Below, one piece after another: positions 27,289 through 45,638 of a stretch of DNA of 64,000 nt (the first letter of the stretch is position 1; every line of letters starts with the position of its first letter). The notes beneath the pieces were generated by a model, which was not told the DNA's origin, did no database searches, and saw nothing but the letters and a program-made list of their open reading frames with translations. The stretch is from Candidatus Latescibacterota bacterium (lineage in GTDB: Bacteria; Latescibacterota; UBA2968; UBA8231), in the NCBI GenBank assembly GCA_965248265.1, contig CBDFJF010000001.1:160001-224000 (forward strand), given 5' to 3'. The position numbers were made by a program, and so were the translations under genes.

Positions 27289-27299
27289 GCGGGGGACAG

Positions 27300-27805: not shown

Positions 27806-27811
27806 TGTTGG

Positions 27812-29443: not shown

Positions 29444-29465
29444 GTCTCAATCTCCTCGCTCTCGG

Positions 29466-29624
29466 TTAATTGGATCCGGTAGTACTCGCCGGTTGGAAAA
29501 GTTCATGCTGATGCCGTCCGGATCTTCCATATACACGCCCCAGGCCCCCTTGTTCACACCCGCAGTGATGTGGACGGGCGACGAGCGAAATTTCACGCCC
29601 GTGGCGCGCACCGACGACTTTCAT
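29466..29624 (-). pseudogene. VOC/glyoxalase family gene with internal deletion and frameshift
   Basis: Strong RBS + MKVVGA joined out of frame to GVKFRSSPVHITAGVNKGAWGVYMEDPDG, then ELFQP. Confidence 0.6.
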
Positions 29625-29635
29625 ATTCCTCCTCT

Positions 29636-29892
29636 TCAGAAAAGCTGATACGCTCCCCAGCCGCCGTCCACCCACAGCACTTCCCCCACGATGTAGGAAG
29701 CTTCGTCGCTGGCCAGATAGAGCACGGCTTCGGCAATCTCCTGCGGCGTGCCCAACCGCCGCATGGGGGTACGACGCTCGTACATCTCCTGCGAGGCGGT
29801 GCCTTCGGCCAGGCCTTTCTCGACCATCTCGGTCAACACCACGCCCGGCGCCAGCCCCACTACCCGCACACCGCGATCGGCCCACTCGATGC
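29636..29892 (-). pseudogene. SDR oxidoreductase C-terminal fragment
   Basis: EWADRGVRVVGLAPG...TPMRRLGTPQEIAEAVLYLASDEASYIVGEVLWVDGG. Confidence 0.8.
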
Positions 29893-29894
29893 AC

Positions 29895-30587
29895 CCGACT
29901 ACCGATGCTCAGTGGGATGAGGGAACGGTCGAGAAGCTGCAGAAGTGGGCAGCCGACAAGGAGGCAGTGCGTGCCGTACTTCTCACCGGCAACAGGGCAG
30001 GACCGCCAGGATCATACGATGCGTTGTCGGATTTCGATGTCGTTCTGGTCGTTCGAGATGTCCATCCTTTCCATGTGGACCGAATCTGGATAGGCGACTT
30101 TGGCGTCGTTCTGGTGACCTACTGGGACGCACTCTATGCGGACCAGGAGACTGGACTTGAGATCTTTGCCAACGTCGTGCAGTACGAAAGTGGATTGCGG
30201 ATCGACTTCACGCTTTGGCCTGTCGAAAAGGCGCGCCGGGTTGGCCAGACCTCGGAGCTCCCTGCTGGCCTTGACGTTGGTTATTCGGTGCTCGTTGACA
30301 AGGACAATCTTACGACGGGCTTCAGGGCCCCAAGCTTCATGGCGTTTGCCTCAGCAAAACCGAGCGCAGTGGAGTTTTCGCGGTTCGTTGAAGAGTTCTA
30401 TAGCGATGCGCCGGCTGTCGCCAAGTTTCTGATGCGCGGCGACTTGATGCCGGCCAAGTGGGTCCTTGACCAAGACATGAAGCAGGTCTATCTGAGGCGG
30501 CTTCTGCAATGGCAGATTGCCCTGGACACTGACTGGAACGCGCAGTTCCGATCGCTTGGGAATGATCTACAGCGACGGGTATGTTGA
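29895..30587 (+). pseudogene. Aminoglycoside 6-adenylyltransferase (ANT(6)/AadK-like) family protein, truncated
   Basis: VRAVLLTGNRA..DALSDFDV, RIDFTLWP, GYSVLVDKD, KPS..EF..EF; no start codon and no final helices. Confidence 0.7.
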
Positions 30588-30819
30588 CACGAATGGCCCC
30601 GAAGTACGCACCTCTTGCCGCCCCACCGATTCCGAGTCGTCCCTTGTAAGTGGCGGCATCCGTCTCAGAAACGATTTCCGCAGCGACTCCTAGTCCCAGC
30701 AGATCCTCGAGCAGTCGCTCACCTATCCTGTCCTTTATGGCTTCCATCTAATCCGATCTATGGACTATCTATAATGTGCCTTATCTTTCCCACCCTATCA
30801 CCCTGTCTAGACCTCGATA

Positions 30820-30930
30820 CTGACACACTGACAGAGTCCGACACAGTATCGGGAAAGGTTTTCATAGAGGGGTGAGATCCAGTATGGAGAGACTACCCGG
30901 AAGCTGGGTCTGGGTACGTCAGTGTGTCAG
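30820..30930. repeat. Block R3: long imperfect palindrome of CTGACACA/CCGACACA iterons (element B)
   Basis: CTGACACACTGACAGAGTCCGACACAG ... GGGTACGTCAGTGTGTCAG; arms match 39149-39258. Confidence 0.85.
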
Positions 30931-30976
30931 TCATGCCTCCACGGCCACAACCACGCAGGTCATCTCCGGCAATGCA

Positions 30977-31525
30977 TCACGAGTCGAGTTTCTTGGAGAA
31001 AATTGCACTGGCCTCCTGGCACGTCGCCGCGTCACTGACTGGAATCTCGACCCACTCTCCACTGCTATGTAGGACTTCCAGTCCGCCCTCAGCCTGCCTG
31101 CAAGCGGAGAGATCGGTCCAACTGATGAAGTCGGATCTCTTCTCCTGGGACGGGTCCGTTTTTGTCGTGCGCTCGTCGGCATCCTTTACCTTCGGTAGCA
31201 GAAAGCCAAAAAAGGGGGTGCGAGATTTTGAAATCCCATCCGTTCCCAGTTTGTAGTGGATCGGCCTCGTGAGGAACTGAGAGATCCCGAAAATGATCGC
31301 CAGAACTGCAGCAAAGACACCTCCTATCTGCCTCGTCGTCATGCTCCTGGCGGTGTGTTGCACATCGATAAGGGCGAAGGCAATCAGCAGAAGAGAAAAC
31401 ACAGCGGCGAACACAAGCCATACCATGTATCGCGCCGCAGCTGGCTTCGTGTACTCCCACTCCAGGAATATCTCATCCTCCCACTTCGGGTAGGAGAGCT
31501 TCTTCCAAGTTGGCGATGACCGCAT
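30977..31525 (-). CDS. Hypothetical membrane protein (2 TM + cytoplasmic domain)
   Basis: Two hydrophobic segments; co-oriented with neighbouring cargo. Confidence 0.6.
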   Translation of the reverse strand: MRSSPTWKKLSYPKWEDEIFLEWEYTKPAAARYMVWLVFAAVFSLLLIAFALIDVQHTARSMTTRQIGGVFAAVLAIIFGISQFLTRPIHYKLGTDGISKSRTPFFGFLLPKVKDADERTTKTDPSQEKRSDFISWTDLSACRQAEGGLEVLHSSGEWVEIPVSDAATCQEASAIFSKKLDS

Positions 31526-31704
31526 AACCACGTCCACCTGTTTCGCCAGTCGTACTTCGTCGACCTACCGCTCCGTCAGAGCGCTCTCCGTATTCTCAAA
31601 CACTCCCACATCCTGACTCAGCTCCACAATATCAAACACCTTCCTGAAGTGCTGCTTCAACTTTATGGATTATGGGCATTGTCGTCAGCGAATGATCATG
31701 CTTC

Positions 31705-31842
31705 TTAGCTCTCGGACTTGGCATTGAGCCGCTGGTCAATCGATTCCAGGCCACGTATGACTTCGTTGAAGCCCTTTTTCATCGCAATCAGAATCCCCAA
31801 AAGCACTGTCATAATTGCAGCAAGCAAGATGGTATCGATCAT
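31705..31842 (-). CDS. Small single-TM protein (45 aa)
   Basis: GGAGG RBS; MIDTILLAAIMTVLLGILIAMKKGFNEVIRGLESIDQRL. Confidence 0.55.
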   Translation of the reverse strand: MIDTILLAAIMTVLLGILIAMKKGFNEVIRGLESIDQRLNAKSES

Positions 31843-31977
31843 GATGGGTCCTCCGATGACCAATGGCGGTACGTGATCAGGCTTGTGGGTGACTTCGGCT
31901 GTGAGCTCGCTCATAATTCGACTCCTACGACCACGATCGTCTGATCGTCCTCCTGCGTGTGGTCGTCTCCGAACCCT

Positions 31978-34107
31978 TTACTTTTCCGCCAGAAGCTCCT
32001 CCACGTGCTTCTGAAAGTCGAGCATATCGGGAGGAGTCCCGACGTAGGCATAGCGCACGATTCCTTGCTTGTCGATCACAAAGCTCGTCGGTATGGCCGT
32101 CACATTGCCGTAGTCCTTCTGTACTCGATCGTCTCCCATCAGTAACGGGAAATTCAGTTCTTCCTTCTCCGCGTAAGACCGGACTTTCTCAGCCGTGTCG
32201 TTGATCGCAATGCCAATGACGCTGAATCCGTCGTCCTCATATTGATTCTGGAGCGCGAAAAAGGTCGGCATTTCCTCCCGACAAGGGCCACACCACGTAG
32301 CCCAGAAATCGACAATCAGGACGTGTCCCTCGAAATCGGCGAGTTTGACTTCCTTGCCGTCGATATCCTTCAGGACAAAATCAGGTGTTGGTTGGCCGAC
32401 AAACTCCGCTTTGTCCTTGCTCCTCCCTGGAGGCCCGAACTCATCGACCAGTTTTGACCCTTCAGGCAGGGCGAAGGTGAAGGTGTCCTCGGGAAAGGCC
32501 GGATCGATCTCGATGGCACTGTGACGCTCGGTGACGACCATTTTCTTGGGCATCCACTGCCGTTGCTCCTCCGGCATCTCCTTGGCCATCTGTGCCATAT
32601 CTACCTCAAAAGCCACCTGGCGGATCAGGTGATCTTTCTTGCCAATCCAGAGCCGTAGGTTGATCGGCTCATCCATCCCTCCCCTCAACGGGATGTGTGC
32701 TCCTTCCAGCGAACTCACTGGCACTGTCAGCTCGAAGACAGTAACGTTTGTGCCGTCCAGCTTCTCACGACCTACCTTCTTTACCCCCTCGGCGTCTTCC
32801 ATCAGCTCTTTGAGCGGGTCGTCGCTCATCAAGATGGGAAATAAGTAGATACCTCCACCGAAACCACCCATTCGACTGCGTAAATCAGCGGCTGTGGCTT
32901 TCTCGGGCGCTTTCTTCTGAGTGTACTGCTTCTGTCCTTCCATCCACCTCACGTCGAGGTAGGTGGTCAACATTAGCCCATCGCTGACCATAGCGGTCTC
33001 ATGCCCATGGCCCTTGGTGTCAAGTCGGAACCGATTGGGACGCTCGAAGGCGAACCACGTCGGTGTGGTCCTTTTCGTTTCCTCACCAGGCCGCTCCTGA
33101 TAGATCTCCATAGTCGTGCTGTCGCGGTAGCCTCGAAGGGATTGGTATCTCGCGGCAGCCATCGCCAGCTCCTCGGGCGGTTTGATCGGAGTCGCGGCAA
33201 AATCGATAACCATCTGTTCGCCAGCGTTGAATCTGGAGACCAACTCGGACTGAAGTCGGTCCAGCGCTGGCCACAAAACCCCAGCAAGGGTCCCTAAGTC
33301 AGCATAGCTTTCCAGCAGACCCTCTGGCAACGTCGGTCCCACAGCCACCTCCAGGCCTTCGTAATCCTGCACGAAAGCTAGATCGCCTAAGCGATCTGGA
33401 CGCCCTCCAGGCGTCCAGGTAATCCAATTGCCGTCTTCCGTACCATCCGCATCGTTTACCACGACATTGAACCCAATAGTCTTTCCCGCCTGGATCTGGA
33501 GGCGTTTCGAGGGAAAGTGTTCGAAAAGCGGGATGGACCACTCGTAGATCAGGCTCTCTCCCAGGCGCACAAAGGCGGCCTGCACTCCTGAGAGCTTCGT
33601 ATCCCCTCCACCAGACAAAGCGGGATTCCCATCCACCAGTGGCTTGAATCGACTTGGTCCGGGGACCATGACGTACTTCTGTGCGTCCTTCTCTCCTCCA
33701 CTTTGGAGGTCTCCCGGCCTGGGGCCGCTGTGGTCGGCATCCACGTAGATCTCACACAGGTCCTGGGTCACCACATTAGGTGCCTCTGGATGCACCACCA
33801 GATCCTCGTCCCGGACCACGATAGCCAAGTAGAGAGAATTGACCTCCAAGTCATAGCCGACGAAAAAGCCTGCCGTCAGATCCTCGGGTCCATCTGGCGG
33901 TGTGGATTTGTATGCCGAGGACACCCACTCAATGGGATACGAGGCCATGTGATCAGGCCAGTCGTCTAGCTTACCGTCGATGGTGATGCCCGGCAGGGGA
34001 ATGGCGTAGGCGGTCCTCTTGTTGTGGGCGTGAGAGGGGCCGTGTATGCCCGTCAGGAGGGCTATTGCAGCACAGATGGACGGATAGGGGATTCGCATAA
34101 ATCGCAT
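31978..34107 (-). CDS. Secreted fusion: CBM9/DOMON-like + LolA-like (DUF2092) + TlpA thioredoxin
   Basis: ITIDGKLDDWP...IGFNVVVNDAD; AFERPNRFRLD...WIGKKDHLIRQV; DFWATWCGPC. Confidence 0.8.
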   Translation of the reverse strand: MRFMRIPYPSICAAIALLTGIHGPSHAHNKRTAYAIPLPGITIDGKLDDWPDHMASYPIEWVSSAYKSTPPDGPEDLTAGFFVGYDLEVNSLYLAIVVRDEDLVVHPEAPNVVTQDLCEIYVDADHSGPRPGDLQSGGEKDAQKYVMVPGPSRFKPLVDGNPALSGGGDTKLSGVQAAFVRLGESLIYEWSIPLFEHFPSKRLQIQAGKTIGFNVVVNDADGTEDGNWITWTPGGRPDRLGDLAFVQDYEGLEVAVGPTLPEGLLESYADLGTLAGVLWPALDRLQSELVSRFNAGEQMVIDFAATPIKPPEELAMAAARYQSLRGYRDSTTMEIYQERPGEETKRTTPTWFAFERPNRFRLDTKGHGHETAMVSDGLMLTTYLDVRWMEGQKQYTQKKAPEKATAADLRSRMGGFGGGIYLFPILMSDDPLKELMEDAEGVKKVGREKLDGTNVTVFELTVPVSSLEGAHIPLRGGMDEPINLRLWIGKKDHLIRQVAFEVDMAQMAKEMPEEQRQWMPKKMVVTERHSAIEIDPAFPEDTFTFALPEGSKLVDEFGPPGRSKDKAEFVGQPTPDFVLKDIDGKEVKLADFEGHVLIVDFWATWCGPCREEMPTFFALQNQYEDDGFSVIGIAINDTAEKVRSYAEKEELNFPLLMGDDRVQKDYGNVTAIPTSFVIDKQGIVRYAYVGTPPDMLDFQKHVEELLAEK

Positions 34108-34132
34108 CGGTGTCAGCTCAGAGTTGGCCGAT

Positions 34133-34161
34133 AGGGTACGGAGATTCGGAGGGTGGACCAA
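34133..34161 (-). promoter_or_regulatory. Conserved inward sigma70-type promoter (element B)
   Basis: TTGGTC-17 nt-TACCCT. Confidence 0.5.
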
Positions 34162-34199
34162 GCGGGGGACAGCTTAACTCATTATAGTGGCCGTCAGAC

Positions 34200-34306
34200 G
34201 GGCTCTGAGGCTATCTGACGTCAGTGCAGACGTGCAGATACTTGGATTAGGGTCCCCCCACTTTCACGAATCCGCAAGAAGGGGTGCCGGGTCTGGGGGG
34301 GCGAGG
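34200..34306. repeat. Blocks Q + P of the element end (element B)
   Basis: GGGCTCTGAGGCTATCTG..GTGCAGATACTTGGATTAGGG TCCCCCCACTTTCACG...GGGGTGCCGGGTCTGGGGGGGCGAGG matches 43299-43432. Confidence 0.85.
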
Positions 34307-34439
34307 TGGCTGGTGGAGGGGCACCCAGTGGCCAGGCGTGCTCCGAAACGCTGCCGAAGGTACAGAGGAGGTAGAAAACGACGGCCAGCCAAACGGAGAG
34401 CTCTAACTAACTCCCTGTATTTTCAGGGATTAGATCCTC

Positions 34440-34472
34440 ACTCACCGCACTCGGACACCAGAACTTCTCGAT
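34440..34472. repeat. att-like 33-bp direct repeat (displaced copy of the isochorismatase 3' end)
   Basis: ACTCACCGCACTCGGACACCAGAACTTCTCGAT is identical to 43572-43604. Confidence 0.95.
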
Positions 34473-34524
34473 CTGCGCAGGGGATATGAACCGGTATGAA
34501 CTGGCCGGAACCACCAGAGGTGGA

Positions 34525-34723
34525 CCTGCAACCCGACGATAAAGCCGCCAACGAAGAAGCTGACGATGTGCAGCAGTCCCTGTGAGAGGAATTGCAGGCT
34601 GATCGACATGTAGCGGCTAATCAGCACGTCGCCAATGAGTCCCCCCAGCAGTAACTCAACGGCGATGAATATCCCCATGCTGGCGAACATCCAGACCTTC
34701 GAGAAAGGCCGCGAATCGTTCAC
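34525..34723 (-). pseudogene. Membrane protein N-terminal fragment cut off by the element end
   Basis: AAGGAG RBS, GTG start, two TM segments, then reads into the att region. Confidence 0.45.
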
Positions 34724-34818
34724 TCTGTCTCCTTCTTCCACGCGTGGCAACTTAGCGGCTCCACACAAGAGCCAGACAGGCGTCCAGCGGGGCATCGCTT
34801 CACTACCCTGTGTGTGGA

Positions 34819-35232
34819 TCAATATCCCCCAGTACTCGTTCCCGAAGTCCGGGTCGTGGCGACTGGTCGGCGCGTAATTGACAACGTCCCTTCCATGCCC
34901 TGTGCCCGATGGCCGGGAACGGCGCAGTAGAAGATATAGGTCCCTTCCGAGACGCCGCTCAATTGCGCGCTGGTCGTGTCACCTGCTGGTATATCCACAT
35001 TGACGTTGAGAGCATCGATAGTGAGCGTATGGCCCATATCCGCGCTACTCAATCGTATGGTGACCTCGTCTCCCGGATCAAAGGCAATCCCTCCCGGATT
35101 GAACTGGAACGTACTGGCGGTCATCTCAATGACGCCGTTCGATGGACGGGTTGGCCCGCCGCTATCATCTTCACAGGATGTGAGAAGGCAAGAGGTGAGG
35201 GCGGCGATGAAAACACCTGCGATAGTTTTCAT
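34819..35232 (-). CDS. Cupredoxin-domain lipoprotein
   Basis: Lipobox-like LLTSC; type 1 copper ligands H...FYCAVPGHRAQGM. Confidence 0.85.
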   Translation of the reverse strand: MKTIAGVFIAALTSCLLTSCEDDSGGPTRPSNGVIEMTASTFQFNPGGIAFDPGDEVTIRLSSADMGHTLTIDALNVNVDIPAGDTTSAQLSGVSEGTYIFYCAVPGHRAQGMEGTLSITRRPVATTRTSGTSTGGY

Positions 35233-35404
35233 AATTCCGGATTCTTCACTTTTGTCAAATAGCCACAATCAGAAGGAACCGTGTCACGATCATTCCTCCT
35301 GTGCAGTGATGCTAAGTGGGGGCAGGCGAGAGTTTGATGTGGCGAGGGATGGGCGTCAAGCGTATGTCCGGATAACGAAGGAAGTGCAGAATGGTTGTCC
35401 GAAT

Positions 35405-36298
35405 CTACGGCCTGCTACCGTACTTTAACTCACCCCAACCCCTTGGTGTGACAGCCGTTGGCGCGTCACCCATACGCAACACACGAACACCAACGAAACC
35501 ACTTTCGCCGCGTGGGGAGCCGCCAGCCCGAAACGCCGAGCGAGTGCTTCGGCCTGCATTGCGGAAGTATCCGCCCCGAAAGACACGGACATTGGAGTCT
35601 GTTTTTGGCGTTAACGGGTCAATCTGGGGGTCATTCGTGTACATTCCAAACCCGTCCTGTACCCACTCGAACACATTCCCGTGCATATCATAAAGACCCC
35701 ATGGATTCGGTAACTTCGAACCCACCGGCTGGCCATACTGCAAACCTATGTCCCAAGCGTTCTTTCCATACCATGCGTAGTCTTCTAACTGGCTCTCATC
35801 ATCGCCGAAGGACCACAGGGTGGTAGTTCCGGCTCGACACGCATATTCCCATTCTGCCTCTGTCGGCAATCGATACAGTTCCTCGCCCTCCATTTCGTTC
35901 AAACGGCTGAAGAGTATCAAGGCAACGTTATACGAAATGTAAACCGCAGGGTGGTCCGGGTTGGACTGCACGAAGTCCTGGCCTGACCACGGAGTCCTAC
36001 CCATCACCGCCTCCCACTGTCCCTGGGTGATCTCAAACTTCCCCAGATAAAAACCCTGACTGATCGTCACGCTGTGTGCGGGTTGATCCTCTTGGAACTC
36101 GCCGTCCAACACTTCATCTCCCAGTGGGCCAGAGCGGTAAGCTTGCGCCTGTTCTTCAGTCGTTCCCATGACGAATGTGCCTGGCTCAATCCACACCATC
36201 TCCATCGTCGCGCCGCCAGGTAAGTCCACGGTGATCTCCGTGTTTGCGCTTACGCTCGTCACCGAAAGCATGAGAATGCATGTTAGCTTTTTCATCAT
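35405..36298 (-). CDS. Secreted FGE-sulfatase (SUMF1-like) domain protein with a WGxLK tail
   Basis: YRLPTEAEWEYACRAG, PNPWGLYDMHGNVFEW, RVFRGG; ends PTAVTPRGWGELK. Confidence 0.9.
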   Translation of the reverse strand: MMKKLTCILMLSVTSVSANTEITVDLPGGATMEMVWIEPGTFVMGTTEEQAQAYRSGPLGDEVLDGEFQEDQPAHSVTISQGFYLGKFEITQGQWEAVMGRTPWSGQDFVQSNPDHPAVYISYNVALILFSRLNEMEGEELYRLPTEAEWEYACRAGTTTLWSFGDDESQLEDYAWYGKNAWDIGLQYGQPVGSKLPNPWGLYDMHGNVFEWVQDGFGMYTNDPQIDPLTPKTDSNVRVFRGGYFRNAGRSTRSAFRAGGSPRGESGFVGVRVLRMGDAPTAVTPRGWGELKYGSRP

Positions 36299-36446
36299 GG
36301 TCCCTTCACCTTCGCATGATCCAACGCCCACTCCAGTACGCCATCGTCGGAACACGGCTCGACGTACTGCTGCAACCTGCCCAGCAGATCTGTCATCGTG
36401 ACTGATTGAATCCAAGGTTACCATCCAGCGCCACCCTTATGTCGTG

Positions 36447-36716
36447 CTACTCCGACTCGATCCGGTCTGGACTCTGGACGAACCAATCCACGTGGCCGCA
36501 ATTCGCACAGATCAAGGTCGTGGCGGATTTGTTCGCCCAGTCCAAGTTCAAGAGCGTCAAACCGGCCGTATTGAGCTGTGCCGATCCCTGCTCGAACTCT
36601 TCGAGCCCGCAGTGAGAGCAGGTGATGAGCTTGTCCTTGAGAGTAAATCGACCGGGAGCGAACGAGGTCGCTGCGGCCTGTACGCCCCTTCTCAAAGCTG
36701 TCAGAAGCTTCGCCAT
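36447..36716 (-). CDS. Small zinc-ribbon protein
   Basis: CSHC...LNTAGLTLLNLDWANKSA..CANCG; GGAGGAG RBS. Confidence 0.75.
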   Translation of the reverse strand: MAKLLTALRRGVQAAATSFAPGRFTLKDKLITCSHCGLEEFEQGSAQLNTAGLTLLNLDWANKSATTLICANCGHVDWFVQSPDRIESE

Positions 36717-36826
36717 GGTCTCCTCCAGATTGCGATTCCGATGTGGGGATTCGGGAAGATGTGTACGCAGCCTGCCATTGTGATCACGAGTGTAGTCGGT
36801 GGGAGTGAAGGGTCAAGAGTGGCGCA

Positions 36827-38281
36827 CTATCTCAGCAGCAGGAGCTTCCGCGTTTCCACTCGCTCGCCAGCTTGTAATCGATACAGATACACGCCACTGG
36901 CTAGCTCACGCTCGTTATCATCTCGACCGTTCCATCGAAGGGTATACGTCCCCGCACTTCGATAACCGCGCAGCAGACTCGCCACCTTCTGTCCTGCGAG
37001 GTTGTATAAGGATAGATCAACCTCGTCGGCGGTAGGCAGGGCGAAGCGAATGACGGTGTTGCTATTGAAGGGATTGGGGTAGTTCTGCCGTAGCGCAATC
37101 TGGTGCGGCAGTGTCGGCGCTGGTTCTTCTTCCACGGCAGTCGGCAACGGGAGTGCTGGGTCATGCGCCGCGAGCATGGCTTCGCGGTATTCGACCGGGA
37201 GAAGCGGCCATTCGTCGGGACCGGGTCGCCTCCAGAGATTCACGTTCTGACTGTAGACCCAGACATATTCGTCGGTGTGCTCGAGGGCGCCTCGCAACGC
37301 CGTGGTCAACTCGGTAGGTGAGTAGTAGTTGCTGTTGAAATTCTCGGTGGAGAAGCCGCTGGAGCTGCTGCCGATGAATATGGGGAACGCGATCCGGGCG
37401 TGGCGGTCGAACTTCTCCGGCACCCTGCTGTGAGCTCGGACTTCGGTCTTGAATTCCATCGCCACCTCCTCGAACTGGGCGGCCGTCTTGAACTTGTAGG
37501 CTTTCTCCGCGCCATCGATGATCATGGCCTCGCCAGAGCATTCCGACAGCAGCCCGTCGAAGAACGGGCGCGTGAGATCGAAGTGGTCGCGCGACGCCCC
37601 AAAGTTCGAGTGCACCGGCCCGAGAAGGGTGATTATCCTGATGTCCGGGTAGACGGAGCTGACGGCCCGCATGATCTCGGCACCGCGCTCGAATACCTTG
37701 TCGTAGTATGCCTCGATCGTCCTGGGAGCGAGGTGGTTAACGCGTTGGGAGTCCCACAGGTTCGTGGCATTGTAGGCCTCGTTGTCGAACAAGAAACCCA
37801 CCATGCCGGCGCGTTTGCAGTACTCGGCGGCCACCTTCCAGTTGCTCACGACGGCGTCGAACTCAGAATCGAACCAGTTCGGCACCTTCAAGCCCGCTAT
37901 GCCGGGGTCGAGGTAGACGAGAAGGAAATTCTCCATATACAAATTCGTATCAGCCGACCGCATGAGCTCAATGCCGGTATCGAGATCCACGAGGCGGTGG
38001 AAATCTTTCCGGAACAAACGGCCAACTGCCTCGGTGCGGAGGCCGTCCTTTTCGGTAATCGGGTAGATCGTAACGCCGTCGACGACTGGCATGACTCTTT
38101 CCATCTCACGCACATCGTCGAAGAACATGCGGGCAGTGGGTCTGCCGCTGAAGGAGATGACTTTCTTGCCGGTGTGAGCGGGCTGACTCCATCCCGGAAT
38201 CGCGAACACCAGGATCAGGCCCAGGACCAGCAGCGAGCTGACGCAGCACAAGGTGCAATACCATTGGATGAATCGGTTCAT
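36827..38281 (-). CDS. Secreted TIM-barrel glycoside hydrolase-like protein with T9SS/FlgD-like C-terminal domain
   Basis: GFLFDNEAY; LRQNYPNPFNS...WNGRDDNERELASGVYLYRLQAG. Confidence 0.75.
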   Translation of the reverse strand: MNRFIQWYCTLCCVSSLLVLGLILVFAIPGWSQPAHTGKKVISFSGRPTARMFFDDVREMERVMPVVDGVTIYPITEKDGLRTEAVGRLFRKDFHRLVDLDTGIELMRSADTNLYMENFLLVYLDPGIAGLKVPNWFDSEFDAVVSNWKVAAEYCKRAGMVGFLFDNEAYNATNLWDSQRVNHLAPRTIEAYYDKVFERGAEIMRAVSSVYPDIRIITLLGPVHSNFGASRDHFDLTRPFFDGLLSECSGEAMIIDGAEKAYKFKTAAQFEEVAMEFKTEVRAHSRVPEKFDRHARIAFPIFIGSSSSGFSTENFNSNYYSPTELTTALRGALEHTDEYVWVYSQNVNLWRRPGPDEWPLLPVEYREAMLAAHDPALPLPTAVEEEPAPTLPHQIALRQNYPNPFNSNTVIRFALPTADEVDLSLYNLAGQKVASLLRGYRSAGTYTLRWNGRDDNERELASGVYLYRLQAGERVETRKLLLLR

Positions 38282-38451
38282 ATGATGGTCCCCTTTGGTG
38301 GCTGTAGGATACACTTTTGCAAGAGACGTGCCAAGAAGGGCGACAGGAGAGTCAGGCGGTGCTAACTCATTGTTGCTGTGGGGATTGAGGTTAGCAGACT
38401 GTTTCCCGGACACATCGAGGCCGTGAGTCCGGTTTTCTGGACGGATTTCGT

Positions 38452-38609
38452 GGGTAGAATAGTTACGGGCTTCTCCTTCTCTACTCTCTCCCTCTCTCTG
38501 ACTTTTCTACCCCTCAAAAGGGATGTGAGGTGATTTCATGGGTAGAGTTGTTACCGTTGGTATGTCTCTTTCTTTCTCTCATTCTCTCTAACATTTCTAC
38601 CCTTCAAAT
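38452..38609. repeat. Block R1 iteron array (element A)
   Basis: GGGTAGAATAGTTAC / TGACTTTTCTACCC / GGGTAGAGTTGTTAC / TAACATTTCTACCC. Confidence 0.85.
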
Positions 38610-38651
38610 CGAATGGCATGCGACTGAAGGTGCTCCCCCATCAGTGTCGAT

Positions 38652-38764
38652 GTCGATCAAATGTTCTGTGAGGCCACGAAGTTGCCCACATTCGTCGATC
38701 GGTATGTAGGTGGCGTAACAGGTACCCGCAGACATTATAGAGCGTCAGAACGCCTGTAGAACGC
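38652..38764. repeat. Block R2 (element A)
   Basis: Matches 21712-21824. Confidence 0.85.
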
Positions 38765-38832
38765 CTCAGCGCCATCTTCATCAACATCTACGGACAATTC
38801 GACCCGGATCTATACACACTGCCGATGTTGCC

Positions 38833-39087
38833 TTACTGCAAGTCAGGCTTCCGAGATAGCGTTGAATGGTTCATAAGCCAGTAGCAAAGGACGCCCAGAC
38901 CGGGAACCGAAAATGCGAGTAGCGACCATATCCACGGACCAAAATCCATAGCCAGGGACGGTAGCTGATGGGCATTCTTTTGCACCGAGATACCAATCGC
39001 TATTTGAACAACGACTAAACACACGACGGCCAGAATGAACGGGGCGTAGATGACGATGAAAACAAATGGTACAAGAGCCATTTCCAT
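38833..39087 (-). CDS. Small membrane protein
   Basis: GAGGAG RBS; 2-3 hydrophobic segments; ends YWLMNHSTLS. Confidence 0.6.
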   Translation of the reverse strand: MEMALVPFVFIVIYAPFILAVVCLVVVQIAIGISVQKNAHQLPSLAMDFGPWIWSLLAFSVPGLGVLCYWLMNHSTLSRKPDLQ

Positions 39088-39148
39088 GTGATCAATCTCC
39101 TCTGACGTTGCTACCAATCATCGTAAGTTGCTTTTCATATGCGTGGGA

Positions 39149-39258
39149 CTGACACACTGACACAGTCCGACACAGAATTGGGGTAGGTTGCTATAGTGGG
39201 GATTTGCTGTATTGCAGAGCTTACCCTACAACCGTGTCGGGGTACGTCAGTGTGTCAG
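39149..39258. repeat. Block R3 palindromic iteron array (element A)
   Basis: CTGACACACTGACACAGTCCGACACAG ... CCGTGTCGGGGTACGTCAGTGTGTCAG. Confidence 0.85.
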
Positions 39259-39353
39259 TTGAAGCAGCATTCACGCGTTTACCCGCACTGCCAAACCGGT
39301 AACGTCGTCGCCCTGCGGAGCCGATCCCAGAGAAGGTCGAAACATGACTCGCT

Positions 39354-42300
39354 TCATCGCGCCGCCAGCTTTAGTTGTGACTCCTCCAGCCTCCGAACGA
39401 CAGCGGTCAGTGCGTCCAACTGCAGTCGCAACTCATCGTTACTCCGAGCCAACGTTTCCTTTTCGGATCGCAGTTCCGACAACTCAGCCTCCACCTGAGT
39501 CAATTCGGCACTACCAGACGCGGCCTTCTCGTGCTGTTGCTCGATGATCCCTTGCTGTTCCTGAATAGCCTTGACGAGAACAGGGACGAAATCGGAATAG
39601 TAAAGGCCCAGGGTCTGGTCAGGATCGTCGCCGATGTGGACGACCTCGTCGATTACAGTCCGCACCTCCTGGGCGATCAAACCAAGCTTCCTGCCCCGTT
39701 CAGGCCGGTCCTTCCAGGTATAGGAGACAGGGTGCAGACGCATCACTTCGTTGAGCCCATATGGACTGTCCTGGATACTCTCCTTCATCCGGCGATCTGA
39801 CGTGTTCACCGAACCACTAACGGCGAATACGTCCGTCCATCGATTACCCGATGCACCGCAAGAAATTGTGTTGTCAGTGAGCGGCCTGATGTTACCACCG
39901 AAATCGACAATACCAGCACCGAACTGGATGTTATTTCCAGCCGGTTGGATCCAAAGCTTTTTGCTATTCAGCGACTGTATGTAACCACCATTTGCATCAA
40001 CGCCAACGGCTACCTGACTGAGTGCTCCGCCACTCTGTCCGTTAGTCGCCATTATGTGCTGCCCGCTGCCGCCCGGTGTGGCATCTACCTTGGATACCAA
40101 CAGCGGGTGAGATCCGGAAGGACTCGTCGTGCCGATGCTGACGTTGCCACCTGTGGGTTGCAACACTATCTCAGTGCCGCTCTGTGATAGGAGTTCCAAA
40201 TCTCCTGTTGTCCCATCACGTGTTATAGAACCGGATGTTGCGGACGCGAAGAGAAGGGACAGATCCACACCGGCAGACTTCAGCAAAACATTACCAGTCA
40301 CTTCAAGCTTTTCTCCTGGTGCTGTGTTGCCGATGCCGACATCGTTGGCTGACGTGATGCGCATCGCCTCACTGCCACCCGTGTGGAATAGGATGGGAAG
40401 GCTGTTGGATTGAAGATAAAGGGCGGATTCGTCAACAGGTGAATAGAGCCATCCCTGCAGGTTCGCATCCTTCATGACCCGAAAACCACTATTGAGACTA
40501 CCCGCGGATTGAGCCGTGACATCGATATAGGTCGTGGCCGCACCTCCATCCACAACCAGTTCCTCTGCCGGACTCGTCGTGCCGATGCCGACGTTGCCGG
40601 CTGCGCTCACGGTCATCCTCGTCGTCGAGCCCGTCTGAAATTGAATGTCACGGGAGCCCGAGTTGTGTCCGATCTGTAGTCCAGTGGCATCAATGTGATC
40701 GACCGTGCTGGCGAAGCTTGCACCTTCGAGCTTCAGCCCAACGGATCCAGAAAGCACATCTCGGGCGTGTACCCGAGTAGTCGGTGCTGTTGTGCCCACG
40801 CCCACGTTGCCAGCATCGTCCACGACAAGCCGATATGTGGCGACACTCGTCTCGGCCTTATCCCGTACCTGGAAGAGCCACCAGGCGTTCTGCAATGCGG
40901 GGATGGCCGAATAGGCATCGGACCAGACTCCACTTTGCCACTTTATGTTTCCGCTCGTTCTGTCGAAATACTCGATCGTCCCATAATTATTAGTACCGTC
41001 ATCATACCGCATTCGCATCGTGAAGAATGGTCCCAGGTCAACGTCTATTGGAGTAATAGGGCTTGTTGTTCCGATTCCGAGCCCCCCATCCTTCCAGTAC
41101 ATATAGGCTTCCGACAGATCACCTTTCCAAAGTGCCAGGTCGTCTATGTTGTTGCTCTGCTGAAACCGGACTTTGCCCGTTCCCCTTGTGAACGTGAGCT
41201 GATCGCCTCCTGTTCCTTCGGCCACGTGGAGTTTTGCCAACGGCGAAGTAGTGCCTATACCCACGTTGCCATTCACCGTCAGTCCCCCAACTCCTGCGAC
41301 ATCGACAGCACCGTTGTCCGCTGTGATGGTGCGGCCAGCTCCCGCTCCACCTTCGTCGTAGGCTTCGTCAAGTGTATTCTGCGTGTCGGTGTCGGTATTG
41401 GTGTCGGTGGCGTTGAAGGTGAGGGTGTTGCCGGAAGGAGCGATGGCCATGTTAGTACCAGCGGCCAGAGTGACTGCGTCAGTAAGGCTGTTCACCGTCA
41501 GAACCACCGCACCTGCGGCAACATCGCCTGCCACTATGGTCGCATTGGCAATCTCAGCCGAGGTGACCGCACCAGGGGCAATCTTGGCAGTTGTGACAGC
41601 GGCGGCGGCCAGTTCCGTGGTCCCAACTCCACCTGCGGCGATATCGAGGGTTACATCGCCCGTGGTGCCGCCATTGGCAAGGCCCGTACCCGCCGTTACG
41701 CCAGTGATGTCACCCCCGGCGGTGGCGGCAATAGTCAGGGTGTTACCGGCCGGGGTGATGTTGATGTTAGATCCCGCGGCCAGAGTGACGGCATCGGTCA
41801 GGGTGTTGAGAGTGGTGACCACTGCGCCACCTGCTATATCGCCAGCGCCGATGGTCGCATCGAGGATCTTCGCACTCGTCACCGCGTCATTGGCCAGATC
41901 GGCTGTAGCAATGGTGGCGTCCAGGATTTCATCGGTGGCCACAGCGCCTGTGGCAATGTCAGTGGCGACAATGGTTGCGTCGGCGATCTTTGCACTCGTT
42001 ACCGCATCGGGGGCCAGATCAGCCTCCGCAACTGCACCGTCGATGATCTTGGCACCTGTGATCGAGTTGTCTGCTATGTCGCCAGTGCCCACCTCATTTC
42101 CACCGGTGGTCGAGATCGTGATGTTCTGGCCGACTTGAACGATGTCGATGTTGGCACCCTCAAGCAGGGTTACGTCGTTGGTGGCCGAGTTGAGACTCAA
42201 TACCGCCGTGTCCGTGGCCAACTTGGCTGCCGTCACCGAGGCGTCCTGGATCTTGGCAGTCGTTACTGCATCGGCCGCGATCTCTGCCTCGCTCACGGCA

Positions 42301-43144
42301 TCGGCGGCTATCTGCGTCGCCGTTACCGCATCGTCTGCCAGATCAACGGTTGCAATCGTGCCGTCTGCCAGTTTGGCCGAAGTCACCGCGCCATCGGCCA
42401 GGTCAGCAGTACCAATGGCACCGTCGGTGATCTTGGCGGAGGTCACCGCATTGTCAGCCAATTCAGATCCGGCTGTAGTGATCGTAACCGTATTACCGGC
42501 AGTGGCCACCGTGACGTTATCACCACCTGCGATCGTGACCCCGTCGGTGACGTTGTTTACGCTCGTCACTACCGCTCCCGAAGCGATGTCGGCTGAGCCT
42601 TGCTGCCATCGGCGATCTTGGCTGCAGTCACGGCATCATCGGCCAGCGCTTCACCAGTGATCGCTGCATCGGCAATCTTGGCGCTGGTTACTGAGTCTTC
42701 CGCAAGCTGCTCCGTACCCACGGCGTTGGCAGCGATCTTATCCGCAGTCACCGCGCCGTCTTCGACATCCTTGGCATAGAGGCTGTAGGGAGCCGCTACC
42801 AGTGCAATGCGCGGCGACAACTCATCGCCTGCGCCAATCGAGATCCCCAGGAAATAGGCTCGGTCGAAGGGCACCTCATCCAGAGACGCACTCTCGCCCA
42901 GTACCACATCGAAAAGCCCCTTGCTCGTCGTTACCGTCCGCGTCGCCGTCCACACGGCAGCACCCCCTGCGGTCTGCTCGTACAGGCGGAAGGTGATCTC
43001 ATGGTCACCATCTGTGACGACATCGCCCGCGGCATCGCTCAGGTAGCCCATGTAGGAAATGGTCTTGGGCACGGCCTCCTGGGCGTGGGCGGTCGATAGG
43101 GAAATTGCAAGGCAAAGTGAGATGGCAAGCAGGGATTTCATCAC
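39354..43144 (-). CDS. Secreted S74-chaperone fibre/adhesin, paralogue of 23218-27174, with a one-base frameshift at about 42600 (pseudogene or sequence error)
   Basis: ORFs 42569-43144 and 39354-42569 join when one base is restored (the paralogue reads DGSISSADI); SDRRMK...GLIAQEV. Confidence 0.85.
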
Positions 43145-43211
43145 AACATCTCCTCAGTGAGATTCTTATTCGAGCATCTGGTGCAGACACTACACCATAG
43201 TGGCGGGAGTG

Positions 43212-43240
43212 ATGGTACGGAGATCCGGAGGGGGAACCAA
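43212..43240 (-). promoter_or_regulatory. Conserved inward sigma70-type promoter (element A)
   Basis: TTGGTT-17 nt-TACCAT. Confidence 0.6.
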
Positions 43241-43298
43241 GCGATGGCAGGATAGCCTGCATTCCATCATAACCGCTGCTACAGCATCGCCATCACGA

Positions 43299-43432
43299 GG
43301 GCTCTGAGGCTATCTGGCGGGCAGATGTGCAGATACTTGGATTAGGGCAGGTGTGCAGATGGGTGCGGATGCATATCAGGGTCCCCACTTTCACGGATTA
43401 CAGAAAAGGGGTGCCGGGCCTGGGGGGCGAGG
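43299..43432. repeat. Blocks Q + P of the element end (element A)
   Basis: Matches 34200-34306, with extra GTGCAGAT/GTGCGGAT units. Confidence 0.85.
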
Positions 43433-43501
43433 TAGGGTAGGGGGAGTCGGGTCAGTCCGAATCGACGTCTTCGTGCTCCCTCGGTGCAGAATTTCGGAGT
43501 G

Positions 43502-43560
43502 ATGTGGTACAAATGTGGTACGCCGAAGGACTTTAGAACCGTAACCTGTTGTTATTATTT
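43502..43560. other. Arm-type-like direct repeat and IHF-like site next to att
   Basis: ATGTGGTAC x2 at an 11-bp period; minus strand TAACAACAGGTTA is close to WATCARNNNNTTR. Confidence 0.5.
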
Positions 43561-44300
43561 AGGATATCCCAACTCACCGCACTCGGACACCAGAACTTCT
43601 CGATGTACCCAATAACAAGCTGAGTCCCCTCCTCATGTCCAACGTAAGGCGGGGTCGCCGGATTGTACATCGCATCGGTGAGATCCCGGATCAGGGTCAC
43701 ATCCAATCCCCACTTGACCATCTGCTTGATGCCGAAAGTCCGGTTGATCACACACATGTTCGTGTGCACTCCCATGATCAGTAGATGGTGCACGCCGCGT
43801 GACGCCAGAAAGCTGTAGATCTCACCACCGTCATCGGCGATGCCGTCACGCACTTCGTCGATGTCGATACCAGGATGCTGGCTTGACCAGGCTTTGAACG
43901 ACTGCACTTCACCGGTGTCGGAACCACCATTGGGCGCACCGAAGGGGAGATCCGGGTCCTCACGCTCGGTTTCCGCCGGCGGCTCCACCGGCTCACATTC
44001 TTGAATCCTGAGACGCGCCGCGTTGTCGGCGTAGAATTCGAGCGTATCGGAGGGTGCATGCACGATGGTAACACCGCGATCTCGGAGCGCATGCGAGACT
44101 TCGTTCATGCGCGGAACCATCTCATCCACGCGCTCGGTTGCCCCCTTGGTCCAGTGCTTGTCCCACACGTCGCACAACAAGAGGGCGGTTTGCTCACATG
44201 GCAGTCCGGCTTGCTGCTCCAGCACTTCCCAGTACGCACGATCGGCCGCATCGCGCTTCATCTGTTGCCAGCGCCGATTGATCTTGATGACTCCGGCCAT
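43533..44300 (-). CDS. Isochorismatase/nicotinamidase-like cysteine hydrolase (integration target)
   Basis: TALLLCDVWDKHW, IVHAPS, GVHTNMCV, RDLTDAMYNP. Confidence 0.88.
   Translation of the reverse strand: MAGVIKINRRWQQMKRDAADRAYWEVLEQQAGLPCEQTALLLCDVWDKHWTKGATERVDEMVPRMNEVSHALRDRGVTIVHAPSDTLEFYADNAARLRIQECEPVEPPAETEREDPDLPFGAPNGGSDTGEVQSFKAWSSQHPGIDIDEVRDGIADDGGEIYSFLASRGVHHLLIMGVHTNMCVINRTFGIKQMVKWGLDVTLIRDLTDAMYNPATPPYVGHEEGTQLVIGYIEKFWCPSAVSWDILNNNNRLRF
43572..43604. repeat. att-like 33-bp direct repeat within the isochorismatase 3' end
   Basis: Identical to 34440-34472; encodes IEKFWCPSAVS. Confidence 0.95.
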
Positions 44301-44304
44301 GTTA

Positions 44305-44466
44305 GTGCCCTGTTACGGAAGTAGGTTTGTGAAATGAGGGCGCCGAGTCGCCCGACCTGCAAGGCGCGCGAGCGAGGCATATTGGTGGAATATGCCGAGA
44401 GAGCGCAACGCAGTAGGTCGGGATGAATCGGCGGCCGAATACAAGAGTACTTCCGTGACAGGGCAC
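44305..44466. mobile_element. 162-bp structured MITE-like element with TA flanks
   Basis: TA-GTGCCCTGTTACGGAAGTA ... TACTTCCGTGACAGGGCAC-TA, with nested stems (CCCGACCTGC/GTAGGTCGGG, GGCATATT/AATATGCC). Confidence 0.75.
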
Positions 44467-45638
44467 TAGAACGTGCCGGTCACATCCATGGTCTTGCTGG
44501 CAGAGGGATCCTTGCTCACCGTCGAGTTGGCGATGCGCTCCTGCAACTTCTCGTAGTAAAACTCTTCATCTACCGGAATCGTCACCCAGTCGTCCGTCCA
44601 TGCCGACAGCAGCATGGCGTTCGAAAGCTCCACGCCGTTGATGCCTTCCTCGCCTGGCGCCAACAGCGGCGTGCCGTTGCGGATGGCATCTACCCAGTTG
44701 GTGAGAACGACGACGTGTTCCTGCTTGCCTCGGCTCGAAACCGGGATCTCGCACTCCCAGATCTCCGGCTGGCCGAAGCCGTTCGGATGCTCCTTGCAGA
44801 ATTGGCTGATCCCCTCGCGGGTGCGCCAGAACGTGATGCGGCCGTTCTCCACCACCACCTTGCCCCGGTCCGCCGAAATCTCCAGCCGGTTCGTCCCCGG
44901 CGCTTCCCCCGTCGAGGTCATGAAGATTCCCGTGCCGCCGTTTTCATACTCGACGTAGGCGGTCGTATCATCATCCACTTCGATGTCGTGGTACTTGCCG
45001 AATCCGACAAAAGCCCGCACCCTCACCGGCATGCCGCAGACCCACTGCCACATGTCCAAATTGTGCGGGCATTGATTGGCCAGCGCCCCGCCGCCTTCCC
45101 CGGCCCAGGTTGCCCGCCAACCGCCCGAATCGAAATAGCTCTGCGCCCGGAACCAGTCCGTGACGGTGTAGATGGTACGCTTGATCTCCCCCAGTTCCCC
45201 GGATGCGACCAATTCCCGCAGCTTTTGACTAATCGGTCGCGCGCGCTGGTTGAACATGATGCCGAAGACCCGGTCGCTTCGGGCGGCCGCTTCGTTCATC
45301 TCACGCACCTGTTTGGTGTAAACCCCGGCCGGCTTTTCCGACATCACGTGCAGGCCACGCTCCAACCCCTGGATCGCATAGGGCGGATGGAAGTAGTGCG
45401 GTGTCGCAATGATGATGGCGTCAATCCCACCTGCCTCCATCAACGCCTCGGCGCTGTCAAACGTGTTGATGCCCGGATGGCCATCTCTCACTGCCTGCAG
45501 CTTGCTCTCATCCGTATCGGCCACGGACACCAACTCGACGCCGGCCACGGCACCGCCGGCCAGGTGACGGATGTGCGCCGTGCCCATGCCGCCTGCTCCG
45601 ATGACGCCAACTCGTACTGAATCCGTTCGGTCTCCCAT
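44466..45638 (-). CDS. Gfo/Idh/MocA family oxidoreductase
   Basis: VGVIGAGGMG, ATPHYFH, EKPAG, WRATWAGEGGG. Confidence 0.92.
   Translation of the reverse strand: MGDRTDSVRVGVIGAGGMGTAHIRHLAGGAVAGVELVSVADTDESKLQAVRDGHPGINTFDSAEALMEAGGIDAIIIATPHYFHPPYAIQGLERGLHVMSEKPAGVYTKQVREMNEAAARSDRVFGIMFNQRARPISQKLRELVASGELGEIKRTIYTVTDWFRAQSYFDSGGWRATWAGEGGGALANQCPHNLDMWQWVCGMPVRVRAFVGFGKYHDIEVDDDTTAYVEYENGGTGIFMTSTGEAPGTNRLEISADRGKVVVENGRITFWRTREGISQFCKEHPNGFGQPEIWECEIPVSSRGKQEHVVVLTNWVDAIRNGTPLLAPGEEGINGVELSNAMLLSAWTDDWVTIPVDEEFYYEKLQERIANSTVSKDPSASKTMDVTGTF

Follow-up and report, generated by a model that had tools for sequence, protein, structure and literature searches.

A 33-bp repeat of an isochorismatase-family gene end looks like a recombination scar in a reshuffled cell-surface gene region

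The end of an isochorismatase-family gene occurs twice in the 64-kb window, the whole stretch of DNA analysed here. The two copies, about 9 kb apart, form an exact direct repeat (33/33 nt identical), and the segment between them is called the island. The features at the repeated gene end are as follows.

43533–44300, minus strand: isochorismatase-family hydrolase gene P0001, 255 aa (Pfam PF00857, 31.2 bits against a cut-off of 27)
43572–43604, minus strand: proximal 33-bp copy, inside the live gene, codons IEKFWCPSAVS
34440–34472, minus strand: distal 33-bp copy, 100% identical to the proximal copy
34407–34439, minus strand: displaced tail EDLIPENTGS and stop, in frame with the distal copy

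P0001 passes the curated PF00857 cut-off and keeps the family-invariant residues. Its homologues number 4273 at E ≤ 0.001 among 4700 candidates, and the GVHTNMCV and IEKFWCP blocks are invariant across 23 aligned sequences. The cysteine of this isochorismatase-like hydrolase presumably has a catalytic role.

On the minus strand, P0001 ends with ...YIEKFWCPSAVSWDILNNNNRLRF, its live tail WDILNNNNRLRF taking 43536–43571 and its stop 43533–43535. The distal copy reads ...QIEKFWCPSAVSEDLIPENTGS up to a stop at 34407–34409. Translation thus confirms both gene ends given in a first-pass annotation of this DNA. By their sequences both tails look like genuine family tails, and EDLIPENTGS resembles the SEDVL and SEDIL tails of P0007 and P0008.

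The same annotation held that an insertion had rewritten the enzyme's C-terminus. The live tail has the pattern xDILNNNN.LR., a type shared with the closest relatives. Among them, P0123 (93.8% identical in the body) ends with SGDILNV, P0131 with SGDILNKNHELRI and P0129 with SGDIINNNNSLRKQD. It is therefore probable that the C-terminus was not rewritten.

In three protein clusters at 90%, those of P0006, P0007 and P0003, homologues that are nearly identical carry unrelated tails, and the divergence begins right after FWCP(S). The P0129 and P0130 bodies are one residue apart and the P0007 and P0136 bodies are identical, with unrelated tails in either pair. Such unrelated tails from one point mark the site as a recurrent recombination boundary. 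That three other clusters swap tails at this very point fits a site-specific process equally well.

The duplication of the gene's 3′ end stands as first annotated, and at least two matches to the 33-mer arose in 0/100 shuffles. The repeat is sharp-edged. Between the surroundings of the two copies, similarity is absent on the gene-body side (281/500 shuffles score equal or higher), and the tail and spacer show marginal similarity at most (20/500). In 65 distant relatives the 33-mer is only 19–28 of 33 identical, so exact identity requires either that the donor was very close or that the crossover fell inside the 33-mer. The 64-kb window holds no third copy at up to 3 mismatches, and the serial integration at one site once proposed is not borne out.

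From the distal to the proximal copy, the island has the following features.

34473–34528, unstranded: 56 bp from the distal repeat to the truncated gene, with TATGAAC twice inside
34529–34723, minus strand: truncated small membrane-protein gene, codons 1–65 of about 121–132 left
34819–35268, minus strand: cupredoxin/plastocyanin-like protein, 149 aa (PF00127 and PF13473)
35405–36424, minus strand: FGE-sulfatase-domain protein, 339 aa (PF03781, E = 4.6e-41)
36447–36716, minus strand: Zn-ribbon protein, 89 aa (PF09855)
36827–38413, minus strand: secreted protein, 528 aa, carrying a type IX secretion C-terminal sorting domain (PF18962, PF13860 and TIGR04183)
39148–39259, unstranded: imperfect palindromic element of ~112 nt, with a paralogous copy at 30819–30931
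39354–43144, minus strand: tail-fibre-like surface protein gene 'alpha', with a signal peptide, repeats and a C-terminal Peptidase_S74 chaperone domain
43214–43433, minus strand: block A (alpha), the fibre gene's leader and conserved upstream region

The left end is irregular. The membrane-protein homologues P0144–P0148 are 121–132 aa long, homology ends after residue 65, and the reading frame beyond codon 65 runs out through the 33-mer. Relatives with the intact gene are 91–95% identical over residues 1–65, and the missing half was not found in the window by tblastn. The 56-bp segment has only chance-level blastn-short matches in the window and 80 loci.

The island carries ordinary envelope and periplasm genes. 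The protein at 35405–36424 has PvdO/GldK-like matches below the cut-off in NCBIfam. In composition, the island correlates with the core at 0.89 by tetranucleotides, as compared with 0.965 between two core halves.

The fibre gene alpha is split into 191 aa and 1071 aa by a frameshift, a 1-nt deletion near 42600. Its intact paralogue and other related features lie beyond the distal copy.

23218–27174, minus strand: fibre gene 'beta', intact paralogue, 1318 aa (by Pfam, PHROGs and alpha/beta comparison)
27262–27300, minus strand: R2, 39 nt of leader sequence sharing 95% identity with 34135–34173
30924–30966, minus strand: R3, sharp-edged repeat of 43 nt sharing 95% identity with 23030–23072
31978–34107, minus strand: secreted thiol-disulfide oxidoreductase of 709 aa, CBM9-DUF2092-TlpA/ResA-like, a mosaic of domains with just 59% of its length matched by the best relatives
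34135–34307, minus strand: block A (beta), upstream of the 709-aa gene

Alpha and beta are 77% identical in nucleotides over 2 kb, and their proteins are 86% identical in the first 181 aa. The two block A regions are similar at ~77–96% per block, and core, spacer and block A follow in the same order after either repeat copy, as two alleles of a single locus would. The 39-nt core of block A recurs at 27262–27300, where no 33-mer copy is near and a third gene lies downstream, which points to a shared promoter/leader rather than an element terminus. Block A would then be a promoter/leader block common to three genes. The similarity behind the earlier claim that the distal copy is followed by another element end is therefore real, but it marks a promoter/leader and not a terminus.

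R2 and R3 are short, sharp direct repeats bounding multi-kb segments nearby, and their sequences are unrelated to the 33-mer. The R2 pair brackets 6.8 kb (27301–34134) inside what the alpha copy has as a continuous leader. The R3 partner at 23030–23072 is the ribosome-binding site and start of a 308-aa ORF. This insertion-like geometry at unrelated sequences favours general recombination rather than a single site-specific enzyme.

No gene for an integrase was found in the window. Pfam detects a tyrosine or serine recombinase domain in 0/77 window ORFs, NCBIfam finds a recombinase in none of 20 ORFs and PHROGs in none of 17. Phage or conjugation genes are absent from both the island and the 64-kb window, no island gap without an assigned gene is long enough for a recombinase, and the window has 0 tRNA or tmRNA genes. 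The only mobility genes in the window are an IS3 element (8388–9700) and IS630-like fragments (15686–16746).

The arm-like repeats of the first-pass annotation exist, ATGTGGTAC twice at 43502–43521 and TATGAAC twice at 34485–34501, but carry little meaning. They differ from each other and are of common kinds, as 7-mers repeated within 12 nt number 70 in the window against 42 in shuffles and such 9-mers 7 against 2.9. The two island ends have no direct motif in common (497/500 shuffles score equal or higher) and no inverted terminal repeats (368/500). The IHF-like site next to the right att dissolves likewise into a single 1-mismatch match at 43542–43554, while the window has 12 such matches against 18.6 expected.

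Distant relatives were also surveyed, their loci being the matches listed from a scan of genome contigs at 47–58% identity. The motif has a second copy in 0/80 of the loci listed. A recombinase domain occurs in 0/187 ORFs starting within 3 kb downstream, at 71 of these 80 loci.

The 33-bp repeat looks like a recombination scar in a reshuffled cell-surface gene region, not the footprint of a self-mobile island. Our leading account, given roughly even confidence, is that general recombination stacked two alleles of the gene's downstream locus in tandem. The isochorismatase-family gene would be the conserved flank of a hypervariable cell-surface gene region, and its last invariant motif, YIEKFWCPS, would be where high DNA identity ends, giving way to allele-specific sequence. 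The latter would comprise the C-terminal tail, the intergenic spacer, the promoter/leader block and the fibre gene.

The proximal 'alpha' version would run from 43571 down to 34529 with the lineage's own tail, and the distal 'beta' version would start with only the last 33 bp and the tail of a second gene copy. Their joint would be illegitimate, with the membrane-protein gene cut at codon 65 and 56 bp of filler. The donor would be a sister strain whose gene body is nearly identical and whose downstream allele differs, its DNA being added or retained. Possible routes are a single crossover of a circularised fragment, a homology-anchored illegitimate joining and a deletion between two tandem loci that were once complete. 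The repeat, truncation, frameshift, paralogy, R2 and R3 and the lack of recombinases in the window are observed, whereas we infer the sequence of steps and the enzymes behind them.

This account of stacked alleles draws on the lack of a recombinase, the truncated left junction, the ordinary cargo and the paralogous, frameshifted fibre gene. R2 and R3, the clade-type live tail, the sister alleles and the mosaic 709-aa gene also speak for it. Against it, a double-crossover replacement alone leaves no direct repeat, and the account has to invoke one more step, either illegitimate or by single crossover. A short, exact, sharp-edged repeat from the first codon of an invariant motif is the classic attL/attR geometry around an element carrying a surrogate gene end. 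Given an arbitrary remnant length, 33 bp of a ~770-bp gene would be uncommon a priori. An integrase may also act in trans, as the window covers 64 kb of the 3.18-Mb contig.

That geometry is the starting point of the strongest alternative, a decayed integrative element similar to the cis-mobilisable elements called CIMEs, which we consider unlikely while giving it real weight. A tyrosine or serine recombinase element would have integrated at the gene's 3′ end by a crossover within the 33-mer, bringing its own surrogate tail, and its integrase module would later have been deleted, from 56 bp off the att site into the membrane-protein gene. Both att copies would remain, so a cognate integrase elsewhere could still mobilise the element.

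The exact and sharp-edged repeat, the family-like look of both tails, the swaps recurring right after FWCP(S) in three 90% clusters and the somewhat deviating island composition are all in line with such an element. PMC5704250 describes attL/attR elements devoid of integration and transfer genes that undergo tandem accretion at the 3′ ends of genes. However, neither island nor window has an integrase, the island has no other mobile-element gene, the proposed accretion lacks a third att copy and the ends have no common arm motif, dyad or terminal repeats. Integration should move the native tail to the distal copy, whereas the gene-proximal tail is the clade-typical one.

Moreover, the cargo is paralogous to neighbouring chromosomal genes, R2 and R3 repeat the geometry with unrelated sequences, and the downstream ORFs at the 71 distant loci listed are free of recombinases. 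The view of the gene as an integrase att hotspot hence keeps its sharp repeat, family-like tails and recurrent boundary but meets a window without recombinase and a truncated left end. In a bolder version, which we find distinctly doubtful, the IEKFWCPS DNA would be a genuine attB where an unrecognised recombinase of these uncultured bacteria, encoded elsewhere, stacks and swaps integrase-less cassettes of surface-fibre and envelope genes, each with its own enzyme tail. The tail polymorphism in at least three lineages would then be the population footprint.

An assembly artefact is very improbable. Two strain alleles co-existing in the metagenome would have been linearised in series via shared sequence, giving a tandem present in no cell. 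Public metagenome protein sets do contain near-identical bodies that differ in their tails, the repeat is exact, 33 is a common assembler k-mer size, and the joint is odd with its truncated gene and 56 unmatched bp. However, the source contig of 3,178,793 bp points to an assembly that is well resolved or made from long reads, R2 and R3 hold internal mismatches so are not k-mer artefacts, and the frameshift and truncation are ordinary features of decay.

Least probable of all is an old in-genome tandem duplication of the whole locus from the gene's 3′ end with later divergence and a 33-mer kept by gene conversion, which would explain the collinear order of core, spacer, block A and fibre and the paralogy at 77–86% identity, but leaves essentially unrelated tails and spacers beside a 100% identical 33-mer, requires homology on both sides for the conversion where the gene-body side has none, and faces mostly unrelated cargo in the two copies.

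If general recombination is true, the locus is an ordinary but clear case of a conserved metabolic gene anchoring a fast-evolving surface-protein region in an uncultured lineage, and a duplicated gene end alone is no proof of an integrase. If the decayed element is true, an isochorismatase-family gene joins the short list of protein-coding att targets, in poorly known bacteria. Either way, alternative C-terminal tails on enzymes that are identical elsewhere are a cheap protein-level marker for such boundaries in metagenomes.

Among known systems, the Peptidase_S74 tail-fibre-like surface proteins share with both fibre genes the PF13884 and PHROG tail-fibre family matches and a layout of conserved N-terminal part, variable middle and conserved end. 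The genes here have signal peptides and no other phage gene nearby. They are predicted to encode cell-surface proteins, not prophage parts.

Homology-facilitated illegitimate recombination combines one homologous anchor with one illegitimate joint and usually results in replacement with deletion. It would give a foreign segment ending with a truncated gene and filler, as at 34473–34529, while the duplication here needs the joint to lie upstream of the anchor end. Integrase-borne elements at gene 3′ ends have flanking repeats with the 3′ part of the target, as found here, and a recombinase gene, usually beside one att site, which was not found in the window.

The element ICESt1 targets the 3′ end of fda. 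Work of Pavlovic in 2004 and of Bellanger in 2011 reportedly deals with CIMEs and accretion in ICESt1-related elements. A CIME is a segment that keeps attL and attR and no longer carries its genes for integration and transfer (PMC5704250). The island is alike in having no integration or transfer genes and keeping both att-like copies, and the CIME and ICESt1-related elements of Streptococcus thermophilus are likewise flanked by direct repeats formed from a protein-coding gene's 3′ end. It differs in that no cognate integrase or related ICE is known and only two repeat copies are present, in a cargo paralogous to its neighbours, in one end at a truncated gene and in a clade-typical proximal tail.

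A further likeness is to a model of 2017 (PMC5635113), where a variable region lies beside a conserved gene without an integrase and the flanking gene holds recombination signals. Those signals are here the tail swaps among near-identical homologues in the clusters of P0006, P0007 and P0003. That model predicts replacement without a duplicated flank, whereas here a 33-bp flank piece is duplicated and a remnant of the second flank copy is kept.

The exact 33-bp direct repeat claimed by the first-pass annotation (the 33-mer, or R1) is present at 34440-34472 and 43572-43604. The window has no further copy, either at up to 3 mismatches or by a six-frame search for the encoded peptide motif, and none of the shuffled sequences reached two matches to it. 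The proximal copy sits within a 255-aa minus-strand gene (43533-44300) ending ...YIEKFWCPSAVSWDILNNNNRLRF, and the distal copy in the identical frame reads ...QIEKFWCPSAVSEDLIPENTGS.

On the gene-body side of the 33-mer, nothing is common to the two copies (281 of 500 shuffles score at least as high as observed). On the other side, any resemblance over the ~135 bp of tail and spacer is marginal at best (20 of 500 shuffles). Past them comes block A, a segment of 170-220 bp whose aligned pieces are ~77-96% identical between 34135-34307 and 43214-43433. Hence, the similarity along the two copies runs from none to 100%, near none and then ~85%.

The 255-aa protein (P0001) matches PF00857, the isochorismatase family, with a score of 31.2 bits (cut-off 27). 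Of 4700 candidates, 4273 are homologues at E<=0.001, some of them named nicotinamidase-related amidase or isochorismatase family protein at the source. An alignment of 23 homologues shows no variation at I233-P239 (IEKFWCP) or S243, and the tails follow a loose S-x-[DE]-[ILV]-[ILV] pattern to which both window tails conform. Directly upstream of the gene, a 28-nt inverted repeat (44303-44468, 86% complementary, 110 nt between arms) fills the intergenic space.

The duplication had been thought to rewrite the C-terminus of the enzyme, which is not supported here, as the live WDIL-type tail recurs among the closest relatives with bodies of decreasing identity. The tails are SGDILNV in P0123 (body identity 93.8%), SDYILNNIN in P0003 (89.2%), SGDILNKNHELRI in P0131 and SGDIINNNNSLRKQD in P0129 (80.0%). 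The start of the displaced tail, the one after the distal 33-mer, resembles the tails of P0007 and P0008 (SEDVL..., SEDIL...; about 80%). The simplest reading of these alignments is that the gene-proximal tail would be the lineage's own, which is the opposite of what an integrated element with a surrogate tail predicts. A widespread element family may also carry the live tail type.

Inside 90% protein clusters, near-identical bodies bear unrelated tails that diverge directly after FWCP(S). A single body residue separates P0129 from P0130, whose tails are ALSGDIINNNNSLRKQD and VLSSELTR, and P0007 and P0136 have identical bodies over their overlap, with tails of AVSEDVLEGDPRF versus LESGDLL. The tails of P0003, P0123 and P0124 are also unlike one another. 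This comparison sees crossovers near the tail, as an exchange further up the gene would put the two proteins into separate clusters. To judge from these pairs, sister alleles with near-identical flanks demonstrably exist in this gene family.

The idea of a special site thus stands in part. The tail swaps mark the last conserved motif as a boundary of recombination in several lineages; the distant relatives give no sign of an att hotspot. Among the matches listed (genome contigs; at least 595 stretches), at least 80 loci carry the gene at 47-58% identity, from Poribacteria, Latescibacterota, Gemmatimonadota, Chloroflexota and others. The motif occurs once in 65 of the 80 listed loci, with 19-28 of 33 positions identical to the 33-mer, and nothing matches the search pattern in the other 15; a second copy was found in none of the 80.

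Downstream of the gene, none of 187 ORFs has a recombinase domain and three have transposase domains (at L024, L029 and L043). These ORFs, of at least 110 aa and starting within 3 kb of the gene, come from 71 of the 80 listed loci, the other nine having too little sequence. The E-value threshold was 1e-5 for 130 of the ORFs and 1e-10 for the other 57, and the 30 unassigned among the latter were run again at E<=1e-4. With no second motif copy and no recombinase, the matches listed give no sign of an att hotspot at this evolutionary distance.

An integrase was likewise sought nearer the island, the 9099 bp between the 33-mer copies (34473-43571). No tyrosine or serine recombinase was found in the 77 ORFs across the whole window by Pfam, nor, among the ORFs still unassigned, by NCBIfam (20 ORFs) or PHROGs (17 ORFs), and no island gap without assignment is long enough for one. 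The only mobility genes in the window are an IS3-family element at 8388-9700 and IS630-like fragments at 15686-16746. The former looks complete, with 39-nt terminal inverted repeats, orfA (HTH_Tnp_1), orfB (rve) and an ALIL frameshift pseudoknot (9255-9371, 101 bits). The latter is in two pieces, a 121-aa DDE_3 fragment and a 178-aa HTH_32/HTH_29 ORF, and is probably a decayed copy.

None of the island genes is a mobility gene. The island features and the paralogous fibre gene outside it are as follows.

Features of the island and its fibre-gene paralogue
39354-43144, minus strand: tail-fibre-like surface protein gene alpha, with a signal peptide and a C-terminal Peptidase_S74 chaperone domain
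39148-39259, in the island: palindromic element of ~112 nt
In the island, after the palindromic element on the minus-strand reading: 94-aa ORF
In the island: 528-aa protein with a type IX secretion sorting domain
In the island: Zn-ribbon protein gene
In the island: FGE-sulfatase-domain protein gene
In the island: cupredoxin gene
In the island, last on the minus-strand reading: small membrane-protein gene, truncated
23218-27174: intact paralogous fibre gene, 1318 aa

Nucleotide identity between the two fibre genes is 77% over 2 kb, rising to 91% in the final 82 nt. Relative to the intact paralogue, a 1-nt deletion near 42600 splits the alpha gene into 191 aa and 1071 aa. Both genes contain long arrays of 30-nt periodicity (41400-42700 and 25500-26700) that encode 10-residue repeats, (A/T)xxI(A/T)DGAVT, and match PHROG tail-fibre families. 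Their neighbourhoods share a ~290-bp block that is non-coding or unassigned (21533-21824 and 38472-38764, 79% identical). The imperfect palindromic element, beginning ACTGACACACTGACA, has a second copy at 30819-30931 (77% identical); both copies lie directly downstream of a gene, and the element may act as a terminator or represent a small repeat element. No gene remnant is recognisable in the island gap 38414-39353.

At the left end, the membrane-protein gene has five database relatives of 121-132 aa, the closest being 91-95% identical over residues 1-65. The homology stops exactly past residue 65, at 34529, and the missing half, which would have defined an insertion, is absent from the window. 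The 56 bp from there to the 33-mer match the window and the 80 loci no better than chance, as do the two spacers whose origin was sought there. A terminator consensus search near the 33-mer copies gave only two weak terminator-like sites, both inside this truncated-gene region, and a sigma-70 consensus search gave no promoter-like site near either copy.

The short repeats described inside both ends are indeed there, and close tandem repeats occur in the window 70 times for 7-mers and 7 times for 9-mers. The IHF-like site is at chance level (12 matches in the window versus 18.6 expected). No terminal inverted repeats or common arm motifs, direct or inverted, were found at the island ends.

Block A had been taken as the end of another element, which we reject, since its 39-nt core also fronts a third minus-strand gene far from every 33-mer copy (27262-27300, 95% identical to 34135-34173). 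We aligned the three upstream regions. The alpha copy runs unbroken from 43433 to 43145, from upstream block A through the leader, as far as the fibre gene's ribosome-binding site and start. The copy at 34307-34135 has the upstream part and the 39 nt and precedes another gene, which encodes 709 aa from an ATG at 34107; that at 27300-27175 has the 39 nt and the remaining leader of the paralogous fibre gene. From this alignment, block A is a promoter/leader region that paralogous secreted-protein genes have in common, and does not mark the end of an element.

The sigma-70 consensus search called no site in block A, and Rfam at gathering thresholds gave no known RNA family in it or the spacers. 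At those thresholds only the ALIL and TPP elements appeared, both elsewhere, and a scan of 27000-44400 at E<=1 gave one sub-threshold match of no relevance. The TPP riboswitch (63021-63120, minus strand, 62.4 bits) immediately precedes a TonB-dependent receptor gene (60507-63005), with a thiamin pyrophosphokinase gene nearby, which suggests a thiamin-uptake operon.

The 39-nt pair (R2) brackets 6.8 kb relative to the continuous alpha leader, comprising the 709-aa gene, a 186-aa ORF, an ANT(6)-like gene and a GHL10 gene. A 43-nt repeat (R3; 23030-23072 and 30924-30966, 95%) with sharp edges lies, in one copy, where the gene following the fibre gene begins and, in the other, in the sequence after the 186-aa ORF. 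R1, R2 and R3 show the same geometry at sequences without relation to each other, so a single enzyme cannot have them all as its att site. The 709-aa protein is a mosaic too: only its C-terminal 59% is covered by the best relatives (85% and 75% identity), and the N-terminal CBM9 part matches other proteins. From the repeat geometry and this mosaic, the whole ~21.5-43.6 kb stretch is a recombination-built mosaic of envelope genes.

Within the R2-bracketed segment, the ORF at 29748-30587 (plus strand) has a streptomycin/aminoglycoside 6-adenylyltransferase domain (PF04439, E = 8.7e-42). Its score of 130 bits is far below the NCBIfam equivalog cut-offs (450), hence it is a distant family member. 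Two GHL10-family genes (13598-14816 and 28198-29422) lie in inverted orientation with 67% nucleotide identity over 1.2 kb, and are another sign of duplication within the region.

Several mechanisms were dropped: a tRNA or tmRNA target, with no such gene in the window; a diversity-generating retroelement, with no reverse transcriptase; an integron, with no integron integrase; and a transposon target duplication, as inverted ends are absent and both tails are family-like, an outcome not expected from a target-site duplication.

We favour, at about even confidence, the stacking of alleles by general recombination with an illegitimate joint. A decayed integrative element is a less likely rival, even though site-specific integration classically leaves an exact, sharp-edged duplicated gene end. 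Against it, recombinase and third att copy are both absent from the window, one end is a truncated gene with filler, the proximal tail is clade-typical, the cargo is paralogous to its neighbours, the two copies are collinear in architecture, as two alleles of a single locus would be, and R2 and R3 are analogous repeats. These six findings and the sister alleles lead us to prefer allele stacking. An assembly artefact has a slim chance and an old duplication with gene conversion a slimmer one still.

Among known systems, the decayed element would compare with the CIMEs, which PMC5704250 describes as integrase-less derivatives that keep both att sites.
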